Shown in pieces: positions 28,332 through 63,377 of a stretch of 64,000 nucleotides of DNA (its first letter is position 1; the number at the start of each line of letters is the position of its first letter). Location: contig DYLW01000002.1 of the NCBI GenBank assembly GCA_020721865.1, positions 62,591 to 126,590 on the forward strand. Direction: 5' to 3'. The notes beneath the pieces are model-generated. The model saw only the letters and a list, made by a program, of their open reading frames with translations. It did not search any database and was not told where the DNA came from. Made by a program: the position numbers and the translations under genes. The DNA comes from Leptospira biflexa (GTDB lineage Bacteria > Spirochaetota > Leptospiria > Turneriellales > DYLW01).

Positions 28332-28925
28332 CTAATTTTGCTCCCGCCAATGGGAGATGTGGTCAAAGGCCTTGATCAGATAATCGGTTTCCATATTCAC
28401 CTTGTGGCCAACTTTCCAATGAGGGATGTTGGTTTTTTTGAGTGTCTCCGGAATAATCTGCACCCGAAATCCGTCTTTTGTGATTTCATGAATTGTGAGA
28501 CTGATCCCGTCCATGGAAATGCTGCCTTTGGGAATTATGTAAGGGGAGCGGAACGCGATTTCAATATCCCAGTAGTTTTCATGGGATTCAATGGATTTTA
28601 CATCGGCCATGGCTTCAATATGCCCTTGGACAATGTGCCCGCCAATCCTGTCATTGAATTTTAGCGGACGTTCCAGATTGACAATGGTGCCTTGGGAAAA
28701 AAAATCCATATTGGTCAGGGAAAGAGTCTCCGGAACAGAAAATATCTGAAAAGAATTTCCGCGTACTTCCTCCACAGTCTGGCAGGTACCATTGACCGCA
28801 ATGCTGTCACCGTTCTTTAAATCATCAAAAATAAACTCATCACTCTCAATGATAAACCTCTTCCCGCCGGGAAGAACTTCAACAGATTTGACTTTGCCTG
28901 TAGTTTCCACTATGCCGGAAAACAT
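28332..28925 (-). CDS. ribE: Riboflavin synthase alpha chain
   Basis: Canonical N-terminus MFSGIVETTGKV, an internal duplicated lumazine-binding repeat, and ~197 aa length. Confidence 0.9.
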   Translation of the reverse strand: MFSGIVETTGKVKSVEVLPGGKRFIIESDEFIFDDLKNGDSIAVNGTCQTVEEVRGNSFQIFSVPETLSLTNMDFFSQGTIVNLERPLKFNDRIGGHIVQGHIEAMADVKSIESHENYWDIEIAFRSPYIIPKGSISMDGISLTIHEITKDGFRVQIIPETLKKTNIPHWKVGHKVNMETDYLIKAFDHISHWREQN

Positions 28926-28926
28926 C

Positions 28927-28997
28927 AGCGGGCGATGGGACTCGAACCCACTCTAAAAGCTTGGAAGGCTTTTGTGCTACCGTTACACCACGCCCGC
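28927..28997 (-). tRNA. tRNA-Gly (anticodon UCC), CCA not encoded
   Basis: The reverse complement GCGGGCGTGGTGTAACGGTAGCACAAAAGCCTTCCAAGCTTTTAGAGTGGGTTCGAGTCCCATCGCCCGCT folds by hand into a cloverleaf. It has a 7 bp acceptor, a 4 bp D stem, a 5 bp anticodon stem with loop CUUCCAA, and a T arm GTGGG-TTCGAGT-CCCAT. Confidence 0.9.
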
Positions 28998-29123
28998 ACT
29001 GAGATACAGTTAAAAATGTATTTACCATGTAAAGAAAATATTTATGTTATCCTCCAGAGAAAATGCCCGGGAGAGAAAAAATCCCAGGTATTAAAAATAG
29101 CTTTAGAAACCCAAAAAACGGAG

Positions 29124-30488
29124 ATGATTATGACAAATTCCCCCCCAAAAGCAGAAAAAAAAGAAATATTCGGATGGGCAATGTTTGACTTTGCCAATTC
29201 GTCGTATACAACGGTAATTATTACTGTTGTTTTCAGTATTATATTTCCCAGATTAATTGTGGGGAGCGATTCTGGATCTCCCACGGGCGAACCGGAATAC
29301 CGGCTGGGAAATTTATTGTGGAGCGTGGCACTTTCCATCAGCTATTTGTTTGTGGTGCTGACCGCCCCCGTCTTTGGTGCCATTATGGATTTTTCCGCAT
29401 CCAAGAAAAAATTCCTGTTTTACAGCTATATTCTCACCGTGATTTCCACCGCCCTTCTATACTTTGTTTCTCCGGGGGCGGTGATTCTGGGCGTTGTGCT
29501 GATTATTCTTTCCAATTTTGGTTTCGCATCCGGGGAAGATTTTGTTTCTTCGTTTCTTCCGGAGCTGGGCAAACCGGAAGACTTGGGAAAAATTTCCGGT
29601 TACGCCTGGGGATTGGGATACTTTGGTGGGCTCCTTTCCACTGGAATTGCCATTTTTGCCCTGAAAGCTGGCACTGTGACCCCTGCTAATTTTGAAAATC
29701 TGCGGTTGGTGGGTCCGGTCACGGCGGTATTTTTTGCCCTTGCTGCAATTCCCACTTTTCTGTTTCTGAAGGAAAAAGGAAAGAACCGGGATACCTCCGG
29801 CAAGGAAAACTATCTTCTGGTGGGTATTTCCCGCCTGTCCCGCACATTCCGGGATATCCGGGACTATAGGGATTTAACGGCTTTCCTGGCGTCCTATTTT
29901 TTTTCCTACGCTGGACTTTCCATCATTATCAGCTTTGCCTTTATTTATGGAGATCAGGTCATCCACTGGTCGCCCCTGGCACAAACCTTAATGTTTGTCA
30001 TCACCCAATTGACGGCTGCACTGGGAGCGTTTATCTTTGGGCATATACAGGACAGATTTGGTGCCATCAAAAGCTACAATATCACCATGTTACTGTGGGT
30101 GATTTCTGTTGTTCTGATCTTCTTTACCAATGATATCACATCGGCCACAAATTATATATTAGGCACAAACTGGGAACCGCAATTTGTTTTCCTCTGGGTG
30201 GGTTCCCTCGCAGGAATGGGATTGGGTGCAACCCAGTCTGCCAGCCGGGCTCTGGTGGGATTTTTCGCTCCAGAATCCAAATCTGGAGAATTTTTTGGGT
30301 TCTGGGGGCTCTTTGGTAAATTGTCCGCAGTTTTTGGTATTCTGGGACTGGGGGTGCTTCAAGCAGAGCTGGGATTAAAGACTGCCATCCTTATCACCGC
30401 TGTGTTCTTCTTCATAGCTTTTCTTTTTACCTTCAGTGTGAACGAAAAAAGAGGTAGAGAAGCCGCCATTGCTCACGAAGGAGAATAG
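29124..30488 (+). CDS. MFS transporter, UMF1 (Atg22-like) family
   Basis: FGWAMFDFANSSYTTVIITVVF is the typical UMF1 N-terminus, with ~12 TM helices. The start is ATG 29124 or 29130; the track start at 28935 runs antisense through the tRNA and is rejected. Confidence 0.8.
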   Translation: MIMTNSPPKAEKKEIFGWAMFDFANSSYTTVIITVVFSIIFPRLIVGSDSGSPTGEPEYRLGNLLWSVALSISYLFVVLTAPVFGAIMDFSASKKKFLFYSYILTVISTALLYFVSPGAVILGVVLIILSNFGFASGEDFVSSFLPELGKPEDLGKISGYAWGLGYFGGLLSTGIAIFALKAGTVTPANFENLRLVGPVTAVFFALAAIPTFLFLKEKGKNRDTSGKENYLLVGISRLSRTFRDIRDYRDLTAFLASYFFSYAGLSIIISFAFIYGDQVIHWSPLAQTLMFVITQLTAALGAFIFGHIQDRFGAIKSYNITMLLWVISVVLIFFTNDITSATNYILGTNWEPQFVFLWVGSLAGMGLGATQSASRALVGFFAPESKSGEFFGFWGLFGKLSAVFGILGLGVLQAELGLKTAILITAVFFFIAFLFTFSVNEKRGREAAIAHEGE

Positions 30489-35876: not shown

Positions 35877-36481
35877 CCATGACCGAATCAACCATACAAT
35901 GGCAATCCCTGGCGGAGGAAGTGTCAAATTGTGTGAAGTGCAAACTGGCCATCACCCGCAATAAGGTAGTTTTTGGGGAAGGCAATCCCCACGCACAAAT
36001 CATGTTCATAGGAGAAGGGCCTGGCAGCCAGGAAGATATGGAGGGTCGCCCCTTTGTGGGCAGGGCTGGACAGCTCCTCACCCGCATCATTGAAAATGGT
36101 ATGAAAATGTCCCGATCCGATGTGTTCATCACCAATATAGTCAAATGCCGCCCCAGCGTGGACATGGCCATGAAAAAGGACCGTCCCCCGGATAAGGATG
36201 AAGTGGCGGCGTGCAGTCCTTATCTTCTGCGGCAGATTGAAATGATTTCTCCACGGGTTATCATCACCCTGGGAAGTCCCTCCACAAAATTTCTGCTGCA
36301 AACAAATCTGGGAATCACCCAGCTCCGGGGGAAATGGCACACTTTCCAGGGAATCCCGGTCATGCCCACCTACCATCCCAGTTATGTTCTCAGAAACGGA
36401 GGAGATTCCAGTCCGTTAAAAAAAGATGTCTGGCATGATATTAAAATGGTTCTGGATTTACTTGCCAATCCGCCGGAGTAA
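35873..36481 (+). CDS. Uracil-DNA glycosylase, family 4
   Basis: CVKCKL...[24 protein letters not shown]...[12 protein letters not shown] and TYHPSYVLR. Confidence 0.85.
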
Positions 36482-37735
36482 AAATCCCGGTTCCAGGCCG
36501 ATGGGAGAATCCAGAGAAATATCCACCATTGTGTTCGGGCGGGTAAATTCCTGAGGAGTTCCTGCATCGTCCAGAATTGTCTCCGGGCGGATAAAAAAAT
36601 CGTCCTGAATTTTCCGGGTCATAACCTGAATTTCTTCCCCCGGTACAAATTTTCCCCGGATATCCACCTTTGCTGTGCGGGCGGTTGGATTCACGGAAAG
36701 AATAATTCCCAAAAAATCGCTTCCCCGAATATACGAGTTGTCCCCGTAGTTCTGCATGGGAACCTCCGTGCCGCCATTTTCCCGTCCAGGAAAAAACCCA
36801 TCGGTATAATGCCGATGGCTGATGTAAGATAATTCCCTCTGGATGGGTTCCAGAAAGCTTTCATATTCTTTATGGATGATTTCCAGATTATACTCTCCCA
36901 CACGCGGGGAAATGTCTGCCAGAATATCCAGTGCCGCCCGGTACGCACGCGTGACCCCGGCCGCATAGTAAATTCCCTTATTGCGGCCTTCAATTTTTAT
37001 GGAATCCACTCCAATTTCCCGGATTTCCGGCAGAAAGGAAGCAAGGTTCAGATCTTTGGAATTGAAAATATACGTCCCTCTTTCATCCTCTTCAATGGGG
37101 AAATATTCCCCTGGACGGCGTTCTTCCACCAGGGAGTAGCTCCATCGGCAGGGCTGGGCACAGTTACCGTTATTGGCACCCCGGGACGCCAGAAAATCAC
37201 TCAGAAGACACCTTCCGGAGTATGCCATACACATGGCTCCATGCACAAATATTTCCAGATCGGCACCGGTTTCCCGCTTAATCTGTCGTATTTCATCGGA
37301 TGATAATTCACGTGCCAGAATGAATCTTTTCACGCCCATGTCCTGCCAGAATTTCACCGCTTCGTAATTGGTGAGATTTGTCTGGGTACTCAGATGGATT
37401 TCCACCTCCGGCAGATACTGCTTAACCATCCGCAACACGCCGGGATCGGAAATGATCAGGCCGTCCGGTTGGATAGTCTTCAGAAAGCGGATGTGCTTTT
37501 CCACCTCCTCCAGATCCTCATTCCGGGCATAAATATTGATGGTGACATACACTTTCTTTCCCAGATCATGGGCATACCGCACGGAATATTCCATTTCTTC
37601 TTCATGGAAATTGTCGGACTGGGCACGAAGCCCAAAGCGTTTGCCGGATAGATACACCGCATCCGCCCCAAAGGCAAAAGCGGCTTTCATTTTTTCCACT
37701 GACCCGGCAGGAGCTAATAATTCCATCTTTTTCAT
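36458..37735 (-). CDS. Peptidase U32 family protein
   Basis: MELLAPAGSVEKMKAAFAFGADAVYLSG is the typical U32 N-terminus, with the CMAYSGRCLLS region. Confidence 0.85.
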   Translation of the reverse strand: MKKMELLAPAGSVEKMKAAFAFGADAVYLSGKRFGLRAQSDNFHEEEMEYSVRYAHDLGKKVYVTINIYARNEDLEEVEKHIRFLKTIQPDGLIISDPGVLRMVKQYLPEVEIHLSTQTNLTNYEAVKFWQDMGVKRFILARELSSDEIRQIKRETGADLEIFVHGAMCMAYSGRCLLSDFLASRGANNGNCAQPCRWSYSLVEERRPGEYFPIEEDERGTYIFNSKDLNLASFLPEIREIGVDSIKIEGRNKGIYYAAGVTRAYRAALDILADISPRVGEYNLEIIHKEYESFLEPIQRELSYISHRHYTDGFFPGRENGGTEVPMQNYGDNSYIRGSDFLGIILSVNPTARTAKVDIRGKFVPGEEIQVMTRKIQDDFFIRPETILDDAGTPQEFTRPNTMVDISLDSPIGLEPGFLLRRIGK

Positions 37736-39081
37736 ATTTTATTATAAATCCACTCTTTCTTATAAAATTTCCGGAAATTCAGGACAGCCAGAGAAAACAT
37801 CCAAGTGACTGTCCCCATCCATAACCCAATGGTATTCCATTGCATAAATATACCAAAAAATCCGGCAACCGGCAGCATAACAATCCAGGTGACAAATAGT
37901 GTGCGGTACATCACCCAATTCACCAGGCCGGCACCCCGCAGTGCTCCTGCGAAAATCATGTTGGACGCATCAAACATCTGGAAAACAGAAACCAAAATTA
38001 ACGGCCAGAATGCGGTTTGCATCACCTCCGCATCCGGGGTGTACGCCCGCAGAATTTCCGTCGCAAAAACAATAAAAATGACTCCCATGAAGGCCATAAT
38101 AAACCCCCCGCCAAAGAAAGAATGCAGAGCACCCAAGATGGCCTTTTTTTGTTTCCCGGCTCCCAGGCTTTGCCCGGTTATGGTAGTAGCGGCCACACTG
38201 AAAGCATATCCCGGCATGAAGGCGATGGATGTGACGGAAAAAAGAATATTACCCGCTGCGGCGGATGCCGTACCCGTACCTCCGGGGAGCAGGGAAGTCA
38301 GGGTCATAAAGGCAAAGAAACCCAGATTCTGCCCAAATTCCGCCAGAGAGGGGGGCCATCCCAGAAGCACAATTTCCCGCAAAACATCCCATCGGAAACG
38401 GATCCCATGTGCCCGGAGGTAGCTTTCTTTTCTGTCCCGTGTCAGAACCCAAACATAGTACAGAAGAGAAATTCCGGCAGCGAGGCCGGAAGCCAATCCG
38501 GCACCCTTCACCCCCATGGCGGGGGCAGAAAAATGCCCATAAATAAAAACATAATTCAGAAAAATGTTGGATACCGCCATAAGAAAAGATGCAACCATGC
38601 CCACTCCTGTTTTTCCCAAGCCATCAAAAAAGGAGCGAAACAGGAATGCCAGAAAAAAGGGGATTGTCCCCAGGGAACGATACCATAAGTATTCTGCCCC
38701 CAGCGATATCACTTCCGGGTCATTGGACAGGACATCCAGAATCTCCACGGAAAAATGCAATAGCACCCAAGTGAAAACCAGAGAGATGAAAACAAATAAA
38801 ACCAGCGAATGATAAAATATTTCCGATATTTCTTTATAATTTTTCTGGCCAAACCTTCGGGCGGTCAGGATTTGTACGGAATAGGAAGCCCCCATAAACG
38901 CGGAAGAGAACGTCCAGTATGCCATTCCTCCCAAGCCGGCTGCCGCCAGCGGAATTTTTCCCAATTGACCCACCATAACGGTATCTGCCACCATTATACC
39001 GGTGATACTGAACATGGAGACCACCACCGGCCATGCCAATTTCCAGACTTCTCTGAATACCCGTGGGGAAAAAATTTTCAT
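37732..39081 (-). CDS. MATE family efflux transporter
   Basis: 12 TM helices, ITGQSLGAGKQKKA and VGQLGKIPLAAAG patterns. A 4 bp overlap with the U32 gene. Confidence 0.8.
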   Translation of the reverse strand: MKIFSPRVFREVWKLAWPVVVSMFSITGIMVADTVMVGQLGKIPLAAAGLGGMAYWTFSSAFMGASYSVQILTARRFGQKNYKEISEIFYHSLVLFVFISLVFTWVLLHFSVEILDVLSNDPEVISLGAEYLWYRSLGTIPFFLAFLFRSFFDGLGKTGVGMVASFLMAVSNIFLNYVFIYGHFSAPAMGVKGAGLASGLAAGISLLYYVWVLTRDRKESYLRAHGIRFRWDVLREIVLLGWPPSLAEFGQNLGFFAFMTLTSLLPGGTGTASAAAGNILFSVTSIAFMPGYAFSVAATTITGQSLGAGKQKKAILGALHSFFGGGFIMAFMGVIFIVFATEILRAYTPDAEVMQTAFWPLILVSVFQMFDASNMIFAGALRGAGLVNWVMYRTLFVTWIVMLPVAGFFGIFMQWNTIGLWMGTVTWMFSLAVLNFRKFYKKEWIYNKI

Positions 39082-57158: not shown

Positions 57159-60100
57159 TTAATCCAGATATTCCAGAAAAGAAATGGAGCAATGATAGAT
57201 AGCTTTGGTAAATTTCTGTTCAGGAAATGTACCATCAAGAGCCGCCTGGTACTCATCCAGTTGCCGGTCATAACCGTACTGGATTGTGAGTTTTCTGGCG
57301 TCGCCTTCTGTGTCCACTTTACCTGTTTTAAAATCCAGAATACAGTATTTTCCATCGGCGGTGCGGAAAATTAAATCCGCATACATTTTTTTTCTCTGCC
57401 CGCCGGGGATACTGATCTCTATGGGAAATTCAAAGTATTTTTCCTGCGAGCCGAGGATCTCCCCGTAAATTTCATGGTTAATGAAGTCATTCTTCCATTT
57501 AATCAGAATTTTTTCCATGCCCGGATTGGGTTTGTTCTCCCGCAGGAATTTTTGCGGCAAACCGGGGGACGCAAGCTCAGAAAAATAGCGAGCCACCAGA
57601 TCATGGAATAAGATACCCTGGATTCGCGGGGACTCCGGTTGCAGGGCGGGAGGACTCTGGTTTTTTTCCATCTGCCCGCCCGCCTTCTCTGAATCCGGTT
57701 TGGGGTATTCCCACTTTTCCAGATAATCTTCCGGAGTGACCCTTTTCCGGGTTGGGGGGGTATTCCGTGTACCGCAGTCCAGAAAGTCCTGGGCATGGAA
57801 AAATTGGGCGGGAAAACTTTTTTCTCCCAACTGAATCTCTTTTTTTTCTGCCCACCGGCTCTGCGGATTTTCCCCCAGTGCCACAGTGAGAAGATCACTT
57901 GTATAGATAAAATAGGACAAAAAGGAGCTCACGGGAGAAAAGTGCTTTACCGGAGGTAATTGTCCCTTCTCCGCCAGCAGGGAATCCGGAATTATGCCGG
58001 TAAATACCAGATGATTTTTTGCACGGGTGATTGCCACATATAGCTGCCTCAGATACTCTTCTTCTTTTTTGAAATTCACCATCACCCGGGTAATATCCGC
58101 GTATGGGTTTTGGGTTTTATCTTCCAGGGGAATTCCTGCGGAAAATATTTCCTGCAAATTTTCTTTGGACTTACCGGCGGAATTCCCGGTCTCCTTTTGC
58201 CAGATATATTTTTCCCAGATAAGACCGATGGATTTTCCCTGCTGGGAAAAATTCTTTTCCAATTGCGGGATAATGACCATGGGATATTCCAGACCCTTTG
58301 CGGAGTGAATGGTTCCAATATACACCGGAGAGATAATTTCCTTATCATTCTTTCCTCCGGGTGAATCCCCGCCATGCAGAATATAATATTCCGTTTCCTC
58401 CAGAAATTCCTCCAGAGAGCTGGAACGGGTTGATAAAAATTCCGTTGCATATTCCAAAAATTTTTCCAGATTAACTGCCCTGTCCTCATAATCCGGATAG
58501 GAAGCCAGTGCGGAAAGAATGTCCATCTCATCCATAATGTACTGGAGAGCAGAAACAATATTTGCGGAAAAAATCATCTGGGGTATTTTTCTCTTTAAAA
58601 GCGGATCCAGAATCTTCTCTCTGGCAGCTTTGGATTCTTCCCATTGGGACGATTTTAATGCCAAAATAAGTCGGAGAACTTCCTCATCGGCAAAACCCAG
58701 ATAATGGGATTTCAATCCGCCGGTTATATAATAGCGTTCTTCTTTGGTAAAACTCCCTACCCTCTCCCTGGATAGAAGGACGATTGTTTTCAAAAAGAAA
58801 AATAACTCCCGGACTTCTCTGCTCTCCCAAAAGGAAGAAAGCATCCGCGTCTCCACTCCCAGATCCCTCAGGTGCATGGCCAAGGGACGTGCCATTTGGG
58901 AATTCATGAGAAGAACCGCAATGGCTGATTTTTTCTCCCGCATCAGGCGAGTGATATCCTCATATGTTTCCAGCTCCCCAGTCTTTATCTTTTGGATCCA
59001 TGCGGCCAAGGCCTTCAGGTGATTGGTTGCAGTGTCACCATTTTCTTTGTCCTTGAAGGAAAAGAAAAATCCCACTGAGGCGGTTTCATCCTCAACCCCT
59101 TTTTTTCCGTAAGTGATCATGGGATATTCCGGATACCGCTTAATTTTGAATAGAGAAGAAAAAAAATGATTATAAAATTCAATGATAAATGGATGACTGC
59201 GAAAATTCCGGGTCAGCTCTTTAGTTTCGCAGTTTTTCAGCTCCCGGCATATATTCAAGATTATGGATGGATCTCCCCCGTTGAACGAGTAAATGGCCTG
59301 CTTTTCATCCCCCACCAGAAAAAATTTTGTATTTTCAGAAGCGATATTTTTTGCAAACTCCCACAACGCCGGAGAAGTGTCCTGGAACTCATCCAGAAAT
59401 ATATAGCGGAAATTCTGTCTGCCACCACGGTTTGCTTCTGTGGCCAGATCAATCATTAAATCATAATCCACTTTCTGGGATACATCCAGCTCCCTCCGGT
59501 ATTCAGAATAAAAGTCCTCCAGAAATTGGATAATATCCAGAATTTCCCTGCGGCGGTTTTCCAGTTCATCCTCCGGGGGAATGGGACAGGATAAACCTCC
59601 CAGGGCTTCTCTCAGAATTTCCAGAGGAATACGATTTTCTTTCTCAATGGAATTCCATGGCTTACTTCTAAAATTAATATCAATATTCAGCTTTGTTTCC
59701 TGATTTGTCCCAAAGCTATCCAACTGGTGATAAATATCGGCAATTTTTTCCTGGATGGGTTCCGGATACATCTGCAGAAGATCTTCTTTCAACCGGCCAA
59801 TTTTTTGAATAGTGGGAAGGTGTTTCCTAAGGAGCAGCTCTTTGCAGAAAGCCAGAGAAAGCAAGGTGGAGTCACCCTCTTCTTGGCTTTGTTTGAATTT
59901 TCTGGTGACTCTCCGGGCTTCTGCATTGGTGCACCAAGTTTTTATGATGTCCTTCCCCTTATATTCACCCACAGCGTCCAGAAAAGAGACAATCCTTTTT
60001 TCCTGATCCGGATTCCCGGAAAAAAAAGATCCATATATTTTCTGGATGAGCTCATCGGCCTCCCGAGGGGTTAGAATCTGGAATTTGTCTCTTTTTAACA

Positions 60101-60536
60101 GATCCGCATTTTTATTCAGGACAGACTGGGCAAAAGAATGAATGGTGGAAACTCTCATGCGGTTTTGCTTCATCCGGGAATTCCTTATGTGGGACAATAA
60201 TTGTCCCCGGATTTCTGGATTCAGATTCTGGATAATTTCCCACGTGAGGGGATCTTGGGATAGGAGACCCTCCGACTCCCCGGAGGAAAGGGCTTTCTGC
60301 AAATCTTTCAACAGGGCAAGTATCCGGCTTTTCATTTCTCCCGCCGCCGCATCTGTAAAGGTAATGGTGAGAATTTCCGATACATCACAGGGCTCGCTTT
60401 TTTCCATGGTATCCGGTTTTTCCCCAAACAAAGAAAAAATGGGAATCCCCAAAAGGGCATTGATGTACGCACGGGTTAAGAGAAACGTTTTTCCGGTACC
60501 GGCACTCGCGAGAATTCTCCTGTGCATTTCAGGCAT
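57159..60536 (-). CDS. UvrD-type helicase with a C-terminal PD-(D/E)xK nuclease (AddA-like)
   Basis: Walker A ILASAGTGKTF, FLDEFQDTSP, IHSAKGLEYP, and the nuclease motif YADLIFRT..YCILDFKTGK. The start is the internal ATG 60536 (8 bp overlap with the upstream gene) or 60527. Confidence 0.8.
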   Translation of the reverse strand: MPEMHRRILASAGTGKTFLLTRAYINALLGIPIFSLFGEKPDTMEKSEPCDVSEILTITFTDAAAGEMKSRILALLKDLQKALSSGESEGLLSQDPLTWEIIQNLNPEIRGQLLSHIRNSRMKQNRMRVSTIHSFAQSVLNKNADLLKRDKFQILTPREADELIQKIYGSFFSGNPDQEKRIVSFLDAVGEYKGKDIIKTWCTNAEARRVTRKFKQSQEEGDSTLLSLAFCKELLLRKHLPTIQKIGRLKEDLLQMYPEPIQEKIADIYHQLDSFGTNQETKLNIDINFRSKPWNSIEKENRIPLEILREALGGLSCPIPPEDELENRRREILDIIQFLEDFYSEYRRELDVSQKVDYDLMIDLATEANRGGRQNFRYIFLDEFQDTSPALWEFAKNIASENTKFFLVGDEKQAIYSFNGGDPSIILNICRELKNCETKELTRNFRSHPFIIEFYNHFFSSLFKIKRYPEYPMITYGKKGVEDETASVGFFFSFKDKENGDTATNHLKALAAWIQKIKTGELETYEDITRLMREKKSAIAVLLMNSQMARPLAMHLRDLGVETRMLSSFWESREVRELFFFLKTIVLLSRERVGSFTKEERYYITGGLKSHYLGFADEEVLRLILALKSSQWEESKAAREKILDPLLKRKIPQMIFSANIVSALQYIMDEMDILSALASYPDYEDRAVNLEKFLEYATEFLSTRSSSLEEFLEETEYYILHGGDSPGGKNDKEIISPVYIGTIHSAKGLEYPMVIIPQLEKNFSQQGKSIGLIWEKYIWQKETGNSAGKSKENLQEIFSAGIPLEDKTQNPYADITRVMVNFKKEEEYLRQLYVAITRAKNHLVFTGIIPDSLLAEKGQLPPVKHFSPVSSFLSYFIYTSDLLTVALGENPQSRWAEKKEIQLGEKSFPAQFFHAQDFLDCGTRNTPPTRKRVTPEDYLEKWEYPKPDSEKAGGQMEKNQSPPALQPESPRIQGILFHDLVARYFSELASPGLPQKFLRENKPNPGMEKILIKWKNDFINHEIYGEILGSQEKYFEFPIEISIPGGQRKKMYADLIFRTADGKYCILDFKTGKVDTEGDARKLTIQYGYDRQLDEYQAALDGTFPEQKFTKAIYHCSISFLEYLD

Positions 60537-63285
60537 CTTCTGCCTCCTCTGGATCGTCCTGGGTAAATAAATCTGGAGACATTTCTTTACGCAGAGACCG
60601 CAGGCAGAAAACGGAGTAGTCACAATTTTCACATGCCTTCTCATCGGCGGCGTAAAAAAAATCACCGTTCTCCATGGAATCCAGCACCCCGGCAAGAATG
60701 CTGTCCACTTCCGTGCGTGGTTTTTCCAGGGAAACTATTTTCCCCCGGCTCTGCCCAATTTCCGCCACATAGCTTTTCTTTTCCGCGTCCCATTCCACCT
60801 TGTTGAATGCAAAAGGATCCCCAGAAAAGCCAGCGGAATTGCCTTTGTGAAATGATAAAAGGTATGCCCGGATGCGAAGATTCTTTTCCGCTGGAAAGGG
60901 AAATTTTTTTGTATTTTGCCTGATAGCCATCAAAAGGGCTTCCAGATAAAATATGAGCTGGTAGTCTTTGTTTTGTTCCCATTTTTCTTTGAGACTTACA
61001 CCATCCATTTTGGTTATGGGTTTATAATCCAGAATATCCACTTCCACAGAATCATTTGTTTCCCGAATATCCACCCTGTCCACCCGCCCATGGATGGCCA
61101 GATCGCGTCCGCCCACGGGAAATATAAAATTTTTCCGATTTTTATCTACCTGAAAAAATTCGTAGAGCCAGGCTTCATTTTTCCAGAGATGGGCAAACAA
61201 CCCCGCCTCTTTCTCTCTTTCATAAAACCGCCGGACAATGCCGGTGATTTTTTTCAGGTCATTTTCCCCCTCATCCAAATTTTTTCTGATGCTATACCAT
61301 AGCTGCCGGTATTCCGGAGACATTTTATTATCTGTGTTATTTTTTGCCGAGGTGTTTTTATTTTTCCATTCCAGAAAGAGGACATTTTCTATTATTTTAT
61401 TCAGAATGGCAAACCCATCGGCGTTGGAAAAATTCTCCATTCCCCGCCGATGTCTGAAACGCATATAGCGGGAAAATACTTCAAAGATTCTATGCAGAAT
61501 GCTTCCTTTGTCCATGGGCTGGATTTCCGCTTCCGGAAGGGGCTTTGCGATATCCAGAAGATACTGATAAAAGTACTGGTGCGGGCAATTCCGGAAACGG
61601 GAAAATTTGGACGGAGAAATGGAATCCACTTTCTCTTCTTTTGGGAGAATCTGGCCATCGGTGGGGGATTTCTCCCCGCTGTGGATATGTGCCAGAAAAT
61701 TTTCCCGGGATTCTTCCAGTGCAAAACGAATATCCGGCTTTTGCATGAGGGCATCTTTTTCTGTGTAAAAATTTCCCGATGAGTAAACTCCTTTTCGCAG
61801 GGAGTGCAGATCTGTACGGATGGTGTCCCGGATTTGGGTTCCGGCCGGATGGGCATCCTGAACAATGGATTGGATGAATGATGCCTTCTCCGGATTTTGA
61901 GGCAACATAACAAATAAATTTTCCGCATTTTGGATAATATTTTGCAAATAGAAACGACTCAACAAAACAGGGTCATTGCTGTAAAAATATTTCTGCCTGT
62001 CCCCGGAGGAATAAAAAATATTATCCAACGCACCGGGAAAAATATTTTCCGCGTCCAGCATAATCACAAAGGGAGGGCGGGTTCCCAGAGTCTGGTTTGC
62101 TTCCTGCGTGAGTATTCCATTATTTTTTACCGTGATGCTCTGACCAGCCAGGGATTGGAGGAGCCATTCCACCGGCAAACGGGTTCCATCTTTCTCAAGA
62201 TCCCGAAAAAAGGCAATGGCGGCATTCACACAGATCATATTTTCCAGAGAAGCCTGCGAGACAAATATATTATCTTTATTTTCATGGTAATTCCGGGCAT
62301 ATTTTGCGTATAATTTTTTGAGAAGAGAAGCGGATTTTTTGTACCAAGACTGCCCGGCAGAAATTTTCCGCACAATGGCTGCGATCTCGCTGAAAACGGG
62401 AATCTGACCTGCTGCTTTTCCACGGGAGAAAAAAAGCGGGATATTATAAGACATAAATGCCGATTCCAAGCGCACTGGATCGTGTAGGGAATGAGAGACC
62501 ACAAGAATCTGGGAGGGATCCGCCTTCTTTTCTGTGATGAGCCATCGGGCTAAGGATGCAGCCGCATGATACTGGTGCAAACCAGCGGGATATTCCACAA
62601 ATTGGACGGGCTCACTATAAGAAAAATTTTCCGAAGATTCCCATGATAAATACTGTGTACTTCTTTGGCGTAAATAATGATAAATATTTTTTTCCGCTGC
62701 ACTGTTATAAAAATGAATACCACCGCTTTTTTCTCCCGCCATTTCCAGTTCCATGGAATCCAGATAAATGTCTTCATAGACGCCAAACAAATCCGAGCGG
62801 GGGGAAAACGCTACTGTATTTATTCTGTCTGCCCCGTCCAGAACACCGGCTTGGGCAAGTTTTTCCTGGTAAATCCCAAACAACCGCTGTATGTCTTTTT
62901 TTTTGGCCGATGGGTAATGATGCAGAATATCTGGATATACAAAAGACAATTCCTCCGGCAATATGGATTTCTTTCCGGAATTGATTTTTATTAAATGAAA
63001 AAATTTTTTCAGATTATCAAAGGAGGAATACCACAACGTCCAATCTTCTTTCCAGTAGGAAAAATAATCCAGCCGGGTGTCTTTTACGGCATCCCGGATA
63101 AACGCAAGGGCGGACATTTCCGGATTTCTTTTTTCATTTCCGTGGATGGCGGACGTCTCCCGTGCAATAAAATCCCCCAGAGTAAAGGATTCCAAAATCC
63201 TTCCAGAGTGGCTTTTTTCCCATACCGGAATGAAATGTCGCACTCTTTCTCTGGAAATAAAAACACCAATATCCCTCTTCAGCAT
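60529..63285 (-). CDS. AddB-like PD-(D/E)xK nuclease subunit with Fe-S-type cysteines
   Basis: No Walker A. FRNCPHQYFYQYLL plus the C-terminal CENCDYSVFC gives the 1+3 Cys arrangement of AddB-type iron-staple nucleases. GRVDRVDI...VDILDYKP is the nuclease core. Confidence 0.65.
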   Translation of the reverse strand: MLKRDIGVFISRERVRHFIPVWEKSHSGRILESFTLGDFIARETSAIHGNEKRNPEMSALAFIRDAVKDTRLDYFSYWKEDWTLWYSSFDNLKKFFHLIKINSGKKSILPEELSFVYPDILHHYPSAKKKDIQRLFGIYQEKLAQAGVLDGADRINTVAFSPRSDLFGVYEDIYLDSMELEMAGEKSGGIHFYNSAAEKNIYHYLRQRSTQYLSWESSENFSYSEPVQFVEYPAGLHQYHAAASLARWLITEKKADPSQILVVSHSLHDPVRLESAFMSYNIPLFFSRGKAAGQIPVFSEIAAIVRKISAGQSWYKKSASLLKKLYAKYARNYHENKDNIFVSQASLENMICVNAAIAFFRDLEKDGTRLPVEWLLQSLAGQSITVKNNGILTQEANQTLGTRPPFVIMLDAENIFPGALDNIFYSSGDRQKYFYSNDPVLLSRFYLQNIIQNAENLFVMLPQNPEKASFIQSIVQDAHPAGTQIRDTIRTDLHSLRKGVYSSGNFYTEKDALMQKPDIRFALEESRENFLAHIHSGEKSPTDGQILPKEEKVDSISPSKFSRFRNCPHQYFYQYLLDIAKPLPEAEIQPMDKGSILHRIFEVFSRYMRFRHRRGMENFSNADGFAILNKIIENVLFLEWKNKNTSAKNNTDNKMSPEYRQLWYSIRKNLDEGENDLKKITGIVRRFYEREKEAGLFAHLWKNEAWLYEFFQVDKNRKNFIFPVGGRDLAIHGRVDRVDIRETNDSVEVDILDYKPITKMDGVSLKEKWEQNKDYQLIFYLEALLMAIRQNTKKFPFPAEKNLRIRAYLLSFHKGNSAGFSGDPFAFNKVEWDAEKKSYVAEIGQSRGKIVSLEKPRTEVDSILAGVLDSMENGDFFYAADEKACENCDYSVFCLRSLRKEMSPDLFTQDDPEEAEDA

Positions 63286-63377
63286 CTTGTTTATTATAAT
63301 ATATTATTCTGTTCTTGTCAACCCATAAATATATTTTTCTGATTTCGGCCAGAAATGGCGGTAATCCCCAAATAGTA

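Follow-up and report, generated by a model that had tools for sequence, protein, structure and literature searches.

A conserved tRNA-Gly(UCC)-ribE gene pair with a one-nucleotide junction in a Leptospirales-related lineage, and a possible tRNA-processing route to a near-leaderless riboflavin synthase mRNA

In mitochondria, RNase P and ELAC2/RNase Z excise transfer RNAs (tRNAs) from longer transcripts and so free leaderless messenger RNAs (mRNAs), the tRNA punctuation that Ojala, Montoya and Attardi reportedly put forward in 1981. A bacterial tRNA-mRNA operon is found in Escherichia coli, where thrU-tyrU-glyT-thrT-tufB includes the tRNA-Gly(UCC) gene glyT; its mRNA is released by tRNA processing, and tufB lies behind a spacer of ~100 nucleotides (nt) with a Shine-Dalgarno sequence (SD) of its own. 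Plant mitochondrial t-elements and the tRNA-like elements of Haloferax show that RNase P/RNase Z acting on a tRNA or tRNA-like fold can set the end of a neighbouring mRNA, and in reduced endosymbiont genomes tRNA genes abut or overlap coding sequences. For bacteria, a model in which the toxin MazF generates leaderless mRNAs has been proposed and is contested. In the account of that model given in PMC3848588 (citing Vesper 2011), an endonuclease of E. coli creates leaderless mRNA post-transcriptionally. In this study, we analysed a stretch of 64,000 nt deposited as Leptospira biflexa (assembly GCA_020721865.1, contig DYLW01000002.1, positions 62,591 to 126,590; hereafter, the window), in which a tRNA-Gly(UCC) gene stands a single nucleotide upstream of ribE, the gene for riboflavin synthase. 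Our results indicate that the two genes form a conserved tandem whose spacer in the window carries no recognizable SD, promoter or terminator, and raise the possibility that maturation of the tRNA also makes the ribE mRNA.

The tRNA gene is the only one in the window. ARAGORN called it as tRNA-Gly with anticodon tcc, and the Rfam model RF00005 matched it end to end on the same coordinates with 66.5 bits, above the gathering score of 29 (E = 2.9e-12); the Rfam search of the window returned no family besides tRNA and no flavin mononucleotide riboswitch. On the minus strand the gene runs from 28997 (G1) to 28927 (U73), GCGGGCG...CGCCCGC-T, and the trailer that follows starts GAT, so that CCA is not encoded. 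Direct reading of its ends (GCG...CGC-U) gives G1:C72, C2:G71, G3:C70 and U73, which we take to be the bacterial (E. coli GlyRS) tRNA-Gly identity set. Across the relatives described below, 21 of 21 cloverleaf pairs were 100% paired and four of them carried compensatory double changes, as against 43-56% pairing and 0 compensatory pairs when the pairs were slid as a control. These data indicate that tRNA-Gly(UCC) is under structural selection.

The open reading frame (ORF) behind the tRNA encodes two tandem Lum_binding domains (PF00677, E = 9.7e-45), which identifies its product as the riboflavin synthase RibE. All 35 orthologues that we aligned (43-100% identical) start MF[TS]G, with M1, F2 and G4 invariant, and because of this invariance we regard the ATG at 28925 as the true ribE start; the alignment thus fixes the start codon. 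The ratio of nonsynonymous to synonymous substitution rates (dN/dS) was 0.04-0.06 in the only pairs with an estimable dS, namely the window against its nearest relative and two more distant relatives against each other (L002 against L004), indicating that ribE is functional and under strong purifying selection. Read on the minus strand, the junction is ...cagt GCGGGCGTGGTGTAACGGTAGCACAAAAGCCTTCCAAGCTTTTAGAGTGGGTTCGAGTCCCATCGCCCGCT G ATG TTT TCC GGC ATA GTG..., with one base between the tRNA discriminator and the start codon. An earlier note on this DNA, made from the letters alone, had described a tRNA-Gly(UCC) without CCA whose discriminator lies at 28927 and is parted from a ribE ATG at 28925-28923 by the single base 28926, and both the tRNA coordinates and the junction proved right in every detail. 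The note had also considered that RibE orthologues might begin at a downstream methionine, and none of the 35 does.

Other readings of the ribE 5′ region were considered and rejected. Extension upstream meets an in-frame TAG within the tRNA, after which no ATG, GTG or TTG precedes the ribE ATG. Downstream, the next in-frame candidate is the GTG of codon 6, but it lacks an SD, and a start there would cost the protein its invariant MF.G motif. Coupling of ribE translation to a 24-codon frame that runs through the tRNA (28925..28999, minus strand; its GTG straddles the tRNA 5′ end and its TGA overlaps the ribE ATG as TGATG) was also set aside: its GTG is not conserved in L002 and has no SD, the frame lies within a folded tRNA, and we judged it fortuitous.

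Conservation of the pair was assessed in a clade set of 15 loci whose RibE is at least 53% identical (the window, L001-L005, L086-L089, L092 and L094-L097) and in a distant background set of 80 ribE loci (35-47% identical) among the metagenome matches listed, a few of which had upstream sequence too short for a judgement. A same-strand tRNA-Gly(UCC)-ribE tandem was present in 15 of 15 clade loci, and a tandem with a same-strand upstream tRNA in 0 of the 80 distant ones. It was likewise absent from L090 and L093, whose RibE is 47-50% identical, and from Leptospira noguchii (L091), in which ribD and ribE overlap and the SD of ribE is strong (-13.8 kcal/mol). These data indicate that the pairing of tRNA and ribE is not due to chance. 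The spacers of the 15 clade loci, the window first, measure 1, 1, 1, 1, 1, 7, 7, 7, 10, 10, 16, 18, 36, 36 and 48 nt. The nearest genome found, a metagenome-assembled genome (MAG) from a sulfidic cave titled 'Leptospira biflexa' (L001, DYOA01000010.1; the single locus that a RibE scan of genome contigs gave), has a RibE 96% identical to that of the window and the same junction. In L002, L003 and L004 RibE is 78-79% identical and the tRNA identical to those of the window, and the junction CGCCCGCT-G-ATG is the same in all five loci. Between these lineages ribE DNA identity is only 71-73%, with synonymous sites saturated (proportion of synonymous differences, pS, 0.76-0.82), which indicates that the 1-nt junction has outlived a long divergence. 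The abutment described in the earlier note is thus kept in relatives, as a pair throughout the clade and as a 1-nt spacer in the window and L001-L004.

At 53-61% RibE identity, every locus examined still had tRNA-Gly(UCC) immediately upstream of ribE on the same strand, and the spacers of 7-48 nt are A/T-rich and SD-less (anti-SD pairing of +1.9 to -3.8 kcal/mol), except in L089, which has a weak SD (-6.2). Lineages with 1-, 7- and 18-nt spacers share the same tRNA-Gly sequence. Downstream of ribE, synteny with Smr, polysaccharide deacetylase and DprA genes is mostly kept in the clade. The upstream flank differs: the window's genus has a divergent Atg22-like major facilitator superfamily (MFS) transporter gene, and most relatives have a same-strand ActD/cytochrome c cluster. 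In L094 both flanks have changed, with trigger factor upstream and glyQ/dapF downstream, and the tRNA-ribE pair is intact. Since the pair stays when the upstream flank or both flanks change, it behaves as a unit.

Table 1. Positions of the tRNA-ribE features in the window, and spacers and tRNA-proximal stop codons in relatives
Feature	Sequence	Position	Strand	Basis or remark
tRNA-Gly(UCC), 71 nt	Window	28927..28997	minus	ARAGORN and Rfam RF00005; U73 at 28927; CCA not encoded
ribE (riboflavin synthase alpha chain), 197 amino acids plus stop	Window	28332..28925	minus	Pfam Lum_binding, two copies
ribE start codon ATG	Window	28923..28925	minus	First codon of the ORF; M1, F2 and G4 invariant in 35 orthologues
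Single-base spacer G, tRNA discriminator to ribE ATG	Window	28926	minus	Sequence
Intergenic region, presumed promoter region of tRNA-ribE	Window	28998..29129	minus	Weak assignment
Longer spacer, 7 nt	L092, L096/L097			
Longer spacer, 10 nt	L094/L095			
Longer spacer, 16 nt	L089			
Longer spacer, 18 nt	L005			
Longer spacer, 36 nt	L087/L088			
Longer spacer, 48 nt	L086			
tRNA-Gly close behind preceding stop	L005	2402-2412		
tRNA-Gly close behind preceding stop	L086	1868-1882		
tRNA-Gly close behind preceding stop	L087	1884-1894		
tRNA-Gly close behind preceding stop	L089	1890-1897		
tRNA-Gly close behind preceding stop	L092	1913-1923		

The ribE ATG is preceded by 20 nt of tRNA T-arm and acceptor strand (GTTCGAGTCCCATCGCCCGC), and no SD was found in them: the best duplex of positions -22 to -3 with a generic anti-SD tail reached -2.5 kcal/mol, a background level when set beside the median of -3.3 kcal/mol for all ATGs of the window and the -8 to -13 kcal/mol of its SD-bearing genes. 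The earlier note had argued that no SD can exist outside the tRNA body; this holds, and there is none inside the body either. Its contrast between ribE and other genes here with strong SDs held in part. SD-bearing genes do exist, but in a crude set of 53 window ORFs of at least 100 amino acids a 4-nt SD core was present in only 17 (32%), compared with 13.7% for control ATGs. A TAnnnT box at leaderless distance precedes nine of the 53 starts (17%, against 8.8% of control ATGs), and no gene in the set has both signals (0 of 53). Absence of an SD is thus ordinary in the window; the oddity of ribE is that a folded, GC-rich tRNA acceptor stem stands in the place of a leader.

Two of the nine genes with a TAnnnT box bear on how common leaderless starts may be in this genome. 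On the minus strand at 63321..63283, a perfect sigma-70 consensus, TTGACA (63321-63316)-N17-TATAAT (63298-63293), is followed after N7 by an ATG (63285) without SD. It precedes an AddB-like PD-(D/E)XK nuclease gene (63285..60529), whose predicted transcription start site (TSS) falls on G(-1) or A(+1), making its mRNA a strong candidate for a leaderless one. The U32 peptidase gene (37735..36458; start region 37746..37733, minus strand) shows TATAAT-N5-ATG and likewise has no SD. Taken together with the counts above, these starts suggest widespread leaderless initiation in the window's genome. The longest ORFs of the AddB-like gene and of the neighbouring AddA-like helicase gene (60695..57159) overlap by 167 nt (60529..60695, minus strand); an internal ATG of the helicase gene at ~60536, behind GAGGAGG, is the likelier start and would shrink the overlap to 8 nt.

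A pattern scan of the window and four relatives found no promoter or terminator between the tRNA and the ribE start or, on the coding strand, within the tRNA, and spacers of 1-10 nt leave no room for either. A promoter inside the tRNA was also sought by eye, and the best hexamer, TAGAGT, has no -35 partner. The hexamer at -12 to -7 before the ribE ATG is CATCGC and not TAnnnT, so that there is no -10 box for a primary leaderless transcript. Upstream of the tRNA lies an intergenic region that we presume to hold the promoter of the pair; it is bordered by the divergent Atg22-like MFS transporter gene (start ~29124/29130, plus strand) and a -35-like TTTACA occurs there (29033..29028), 30 nt before tRNA position 1. 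The window, L001 and L002 have this TTTACA in common, and likewise a decamer, TTCTTTACAT, despite the otherwise diverged flank of L002. The lack of signals between the two genes leaves co-transcription with tRNA-Gly as the only simple way in which ribE can be expressed, and we regard such co-transcription as very probable.

Several observations on the flanks and hosts of the pair stand beside these results. In relatives, the tRNA-Gly begins 6-13 nt past the stop codon of an ORF of 389-399 amino acids without a Pfam match (Table 1), which is part of the same-strand ActD/cytochrome c cluster, itself resembling alternative complex III. The layout in these relatives is mRNA-tRNA-mRNA, with no space for a separate promoter outside coding sequence. 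In L094 (1920-3510) the tRNA-Gly(UCC)-ribE pair adjoins, in convergent orientation, glyQ, which encodes the alpha subunit of glycyl-tRNA synthetase, an adjacency that may be coincidence. Two independent short-read Logan contigs break exactly at the tRNA-Gly 5′ end (L003 at position 1 and L004 at position 3), which suggests strain-level variation or a repeat directly upstream of the tRNA there. The RibE of the cave MAG is only ~42% identical to that of L. noguchii, which was the single Leptospira species in the comparison. The rib arrangement differs too: in L. noguchii ribD overlaps ribE, and ribBA follows downstream. The species name given to this MAG looks wrong, and the organism belongs to a distant Leptospirales lineage.

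We propose that, in a Leptospirales-related lineage, tRNA-Gly(UCC) and ribE are conserved as one transcription unit of tRNA and mRNA, in which ribE would have no promoter, leader or SD of its own and would be transcribed by read-through from the tRNA gene. RNase Z classically acts on precursors without CCA, cutting right behind the discriminator so that the trailer carries a 5′-phosphate. With no CCA encoded, the 3′ end of this tRNA has to arise at U73 or behind it, ahead of CCA addition, and a precise RNase Z-type endonucleolytic cut after U73 would mature the tRNA and free the ribE mRNA together. The freed mRNA would begin 5′-P-G-AUG, with a 5′-monophosphate, and would be translated by the leaderless (70S, 5′-AUG-dependent) route, which is in wide use in Leptospira; the ribE sequence shows an AUG start and no SD. 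The 1-nt spacer is most simply read as the derived final state of a spacer in which no signal is needed. An AUG at or close to the 5′ end suits leaderless initiation well. In L. interrogans, ~440 mRNAs have untranslated regions (UTRs) of <10 nt, of which 231-244 have a TSS at 0 or -1, and among leaderless genes at 30 °C the category COG H (coenzyme metabolism) is enriched (PMC5243855). A 1-nt leader cost ~2-fold in Caulobacter reporters (PMC8459731), and a table in PMC9031893, citing Giliberti 2012, lists a 5′ phosphate as enhancing leaderless translation.

We give the full chain of co-transcription, cleavage after U73 and leaderless-type translation a probability of about 0.4-0.5. Within it, cleavage exactly after U73 is moderately likely, and the same moderate strength applies to leaderless-type initiation on the processed RNA. 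The stricter form of the proposal is tentative: tRNA excision would be obligatory for a translatable, near-leaderless 5′-monophosphate ribE mRNA, riboflavin synthase output would be stoichiometrically tied to the transcription and maturation of tRNA-Gly(UCC), and in relatives the same tRNA would also sever the preceding respiratory-operon mRNA from ribE. The earlier note had already suggested that endonucleolytic maturation releases a ribE mRNA starting at G-AUG; the operon structure on which that suggestion depends is now strongly supported, and a leaderless mRNA made by processing is plausible, although we infer it only.

Co-transcription would also serve a different route, in which ribE is translated independently of an SD (A/U-rich, S1-type or standby) from the unprocessed or 5′-processed precursor. 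The tRNA 3′ end would then mature through an endonucleolytic cut in the U-rich ribE start, followed by 3′-to-5′ trimming, and each transcript would give RibE or mature tRNA, never both. Exonucleolytic 3′ maturation is a standard bacterial tRNA pathway, the ribE beginning AUGUUUUCC is indeed U-rich, most genes of the window have no SD, and the sister lineages carry ribE behind spacers of 7-48 nt in which an SD is lacking or weak. In the uncut precursor of the window, however, only 2 nt separate the AUG from a stable 7-bp GC-rich acceptor stem, so that no single-stranded platform is available upstream; ribosome loading should be hindered there, because a ribosome needs single-stranded upstream RNA. 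Trimming through, or cutting within, the 594-nt mRNA for each tRNA made would destroy the ribE message and waste the transcript of an essential single-copy-type tRNA, and the CCA-less gene is the kind that RNase Z classically serves. We regard translation from the precursor as unlikely. Minimum free energy folding, with the 5′ region processed or unprocessed, disagreed among lineages on whether the AUG is accessible and was not used as evidence. A TSS of ribE's own, within the tRNA or at the junction, would yield a short-leader or leaderless primary transcript independent of tRNA processing. Leaderless primary transcripts appear common in the window's genome and in Leptospira, the TAGAGT hexamer in the tRNA variable region matches TATAAT at 4 of 6 positions, and the pattern scan has little sensitivity for this lineage. 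Yet the scan gave no promoter-like site at 28927-28997 of the minus strand; the hexamer at -12 to -7 is CATCGC; a start downstream of TAGAGT would leave a GC-rich leader of ~25 nt without SD; and the tRNA is the same in front of 1-, 7- and 18-nt spacers, so it shows no adaptation as a promoter. A separate TSS is therefore quite improbable.

Of comparably low probability is that the abutment is a neutral deletion accident, with RibE needed in traces and leaky translation enough to supply it. Within the clade the spacer varies freely in length, between 1 and 48 nt, and with a single tRNA in the window no genome-wide pattern is demonstrable. Against an accident, the pair is kept in every clade lineage examined, even where both flanks are rearranged, the 1-nt junction has stayed the same between lineages whose synonymous sites are saturated, and ribE is under strong purifying selection. 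This alternative concerns the significance of the junction rather than its mechanism, and is compatible with release of ribE by tRNA processing. Several points weigh against such release as we have set it out. The scan found no sigma-70 promoter upstream of the tRNA either, in the window or the four relatives, and is thus weak in this lineage. The 1-nt state occurs in only three deep lineages and looks like one end of a spacer series, not a purpose-built coupling device; the deletion to 1 nt looks to have been tolerated, or possibly favoured, since the organism can translate near-leaderless RNAs. Folding predictions leave the processed 5′ end open in some lineages only, with the AUG unpaired in the window and paired in L002 and L004. 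In the literature, rnz is confirmed in Borrelia, and we found nothing usable on RNase Z in Leptospira. A fit to Caulobacter data predicts a leaderless efficiency of <10% at leaders of at least 7 nt (PMC8459731). Relatives with SD-less spacers of 7-48 nt thus imply that another SD-independent mode must serve ribE in the clade, and that mode may act here as well.

If the processing model is true, this locus would offer an example from nature of a bacterium whose ordinary tRNA maturation yields a leaderless mRNA, and a free-living analogue of mitochondrial punctuation. It would mean that bacterial ribosomes use processed 5′-monophosphate leaderless mRNAs in normal physiology, which has so far been argued mainly from the contested MazF work, and it would support tRNA excision as a way to make defined mRNA 5′ ends in bacteria. 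The spacer series of the clade (1, 7, 10, 16, 18, 36 and 48 nt, with no SD or a weak one), set behind a near-invariant tRNA, amounts to a natural experiment that bears on leader length and adjacent structured RNA in SD-independent initiation. For annotation, starts that touch a tRNA should not be rejected or shifted by gene callers. If the model is wrong, what is left is a well-conserved tRNA-ribE operon in an under-studied group, of modest interest.

Our literature search found no bacterial gene that abuts a tRNA and has been proposed to be expressed through tRNA processing, only mitochondrial cases, although its coverage was incomplete and this is not proof of novelty. The tRNA-ribE pair resembles mitochondrial punctuation in its tRNA-to-coding-sequence gap of 0-1 nt, its lack of an SD and of intervening signals, and the prospect that excision would set the mRNA 5′ end at the AUG; the relatives add to the likeness, with a tRNA-Gly 6-13 nt past the preceding stop in an mRNA-tRNA-mRNA order. 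It differs in lying on a free-living-type bacterial chromosome served by bacterial ribosomes and factors, in being the one junction seen, and in that processing is only predicted here. Like the tufB operon, it has a same-strand tRNA followed by a coding sequence, conserved linkage and no terminator between; unlike that operon, it has a spacer of 1 nt and no ribosome-binding site outside the tRNA (-2.5 kcal/mol). The t-elements and endosymbiont cases differ from it in that the neighbour of ribE is a genuine essential-type tRNA in an unreduced genome, the intergenic spacing of the window being normal. The MazF model is the only bacterial precedent for a leaderless mRNA made by processing, and it differs in enzyme, end chemistry and physiology: MazF, a stress toxin, cleaves RNA at ACA to give a 5′-OH, whereas the ribE cut would be constitutive and structure-guided and would leave a 5′-phosphate. 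With the primary leaderless mRNAs of L. interrogans (PMC5243855), mycobacteria (PMC4633059) and Deinococcus (PMC4007540), ribE shares the lack of an SD and an AUG 0-1 nt from the predicted 5′ end, and its host belongs to the same bacterial order as Leptospira. Those mRNAs, in contrast, start at a triphosphorylated TSS set by a -10 box, and the 5′ end of ribE would be a monophosphate made by cleavage. We therefore class the tRNA-ribE pair as a combination of two known kinds, a tRNA-mRNA operon and leaderless translation, of which the leaderless part is plausible.

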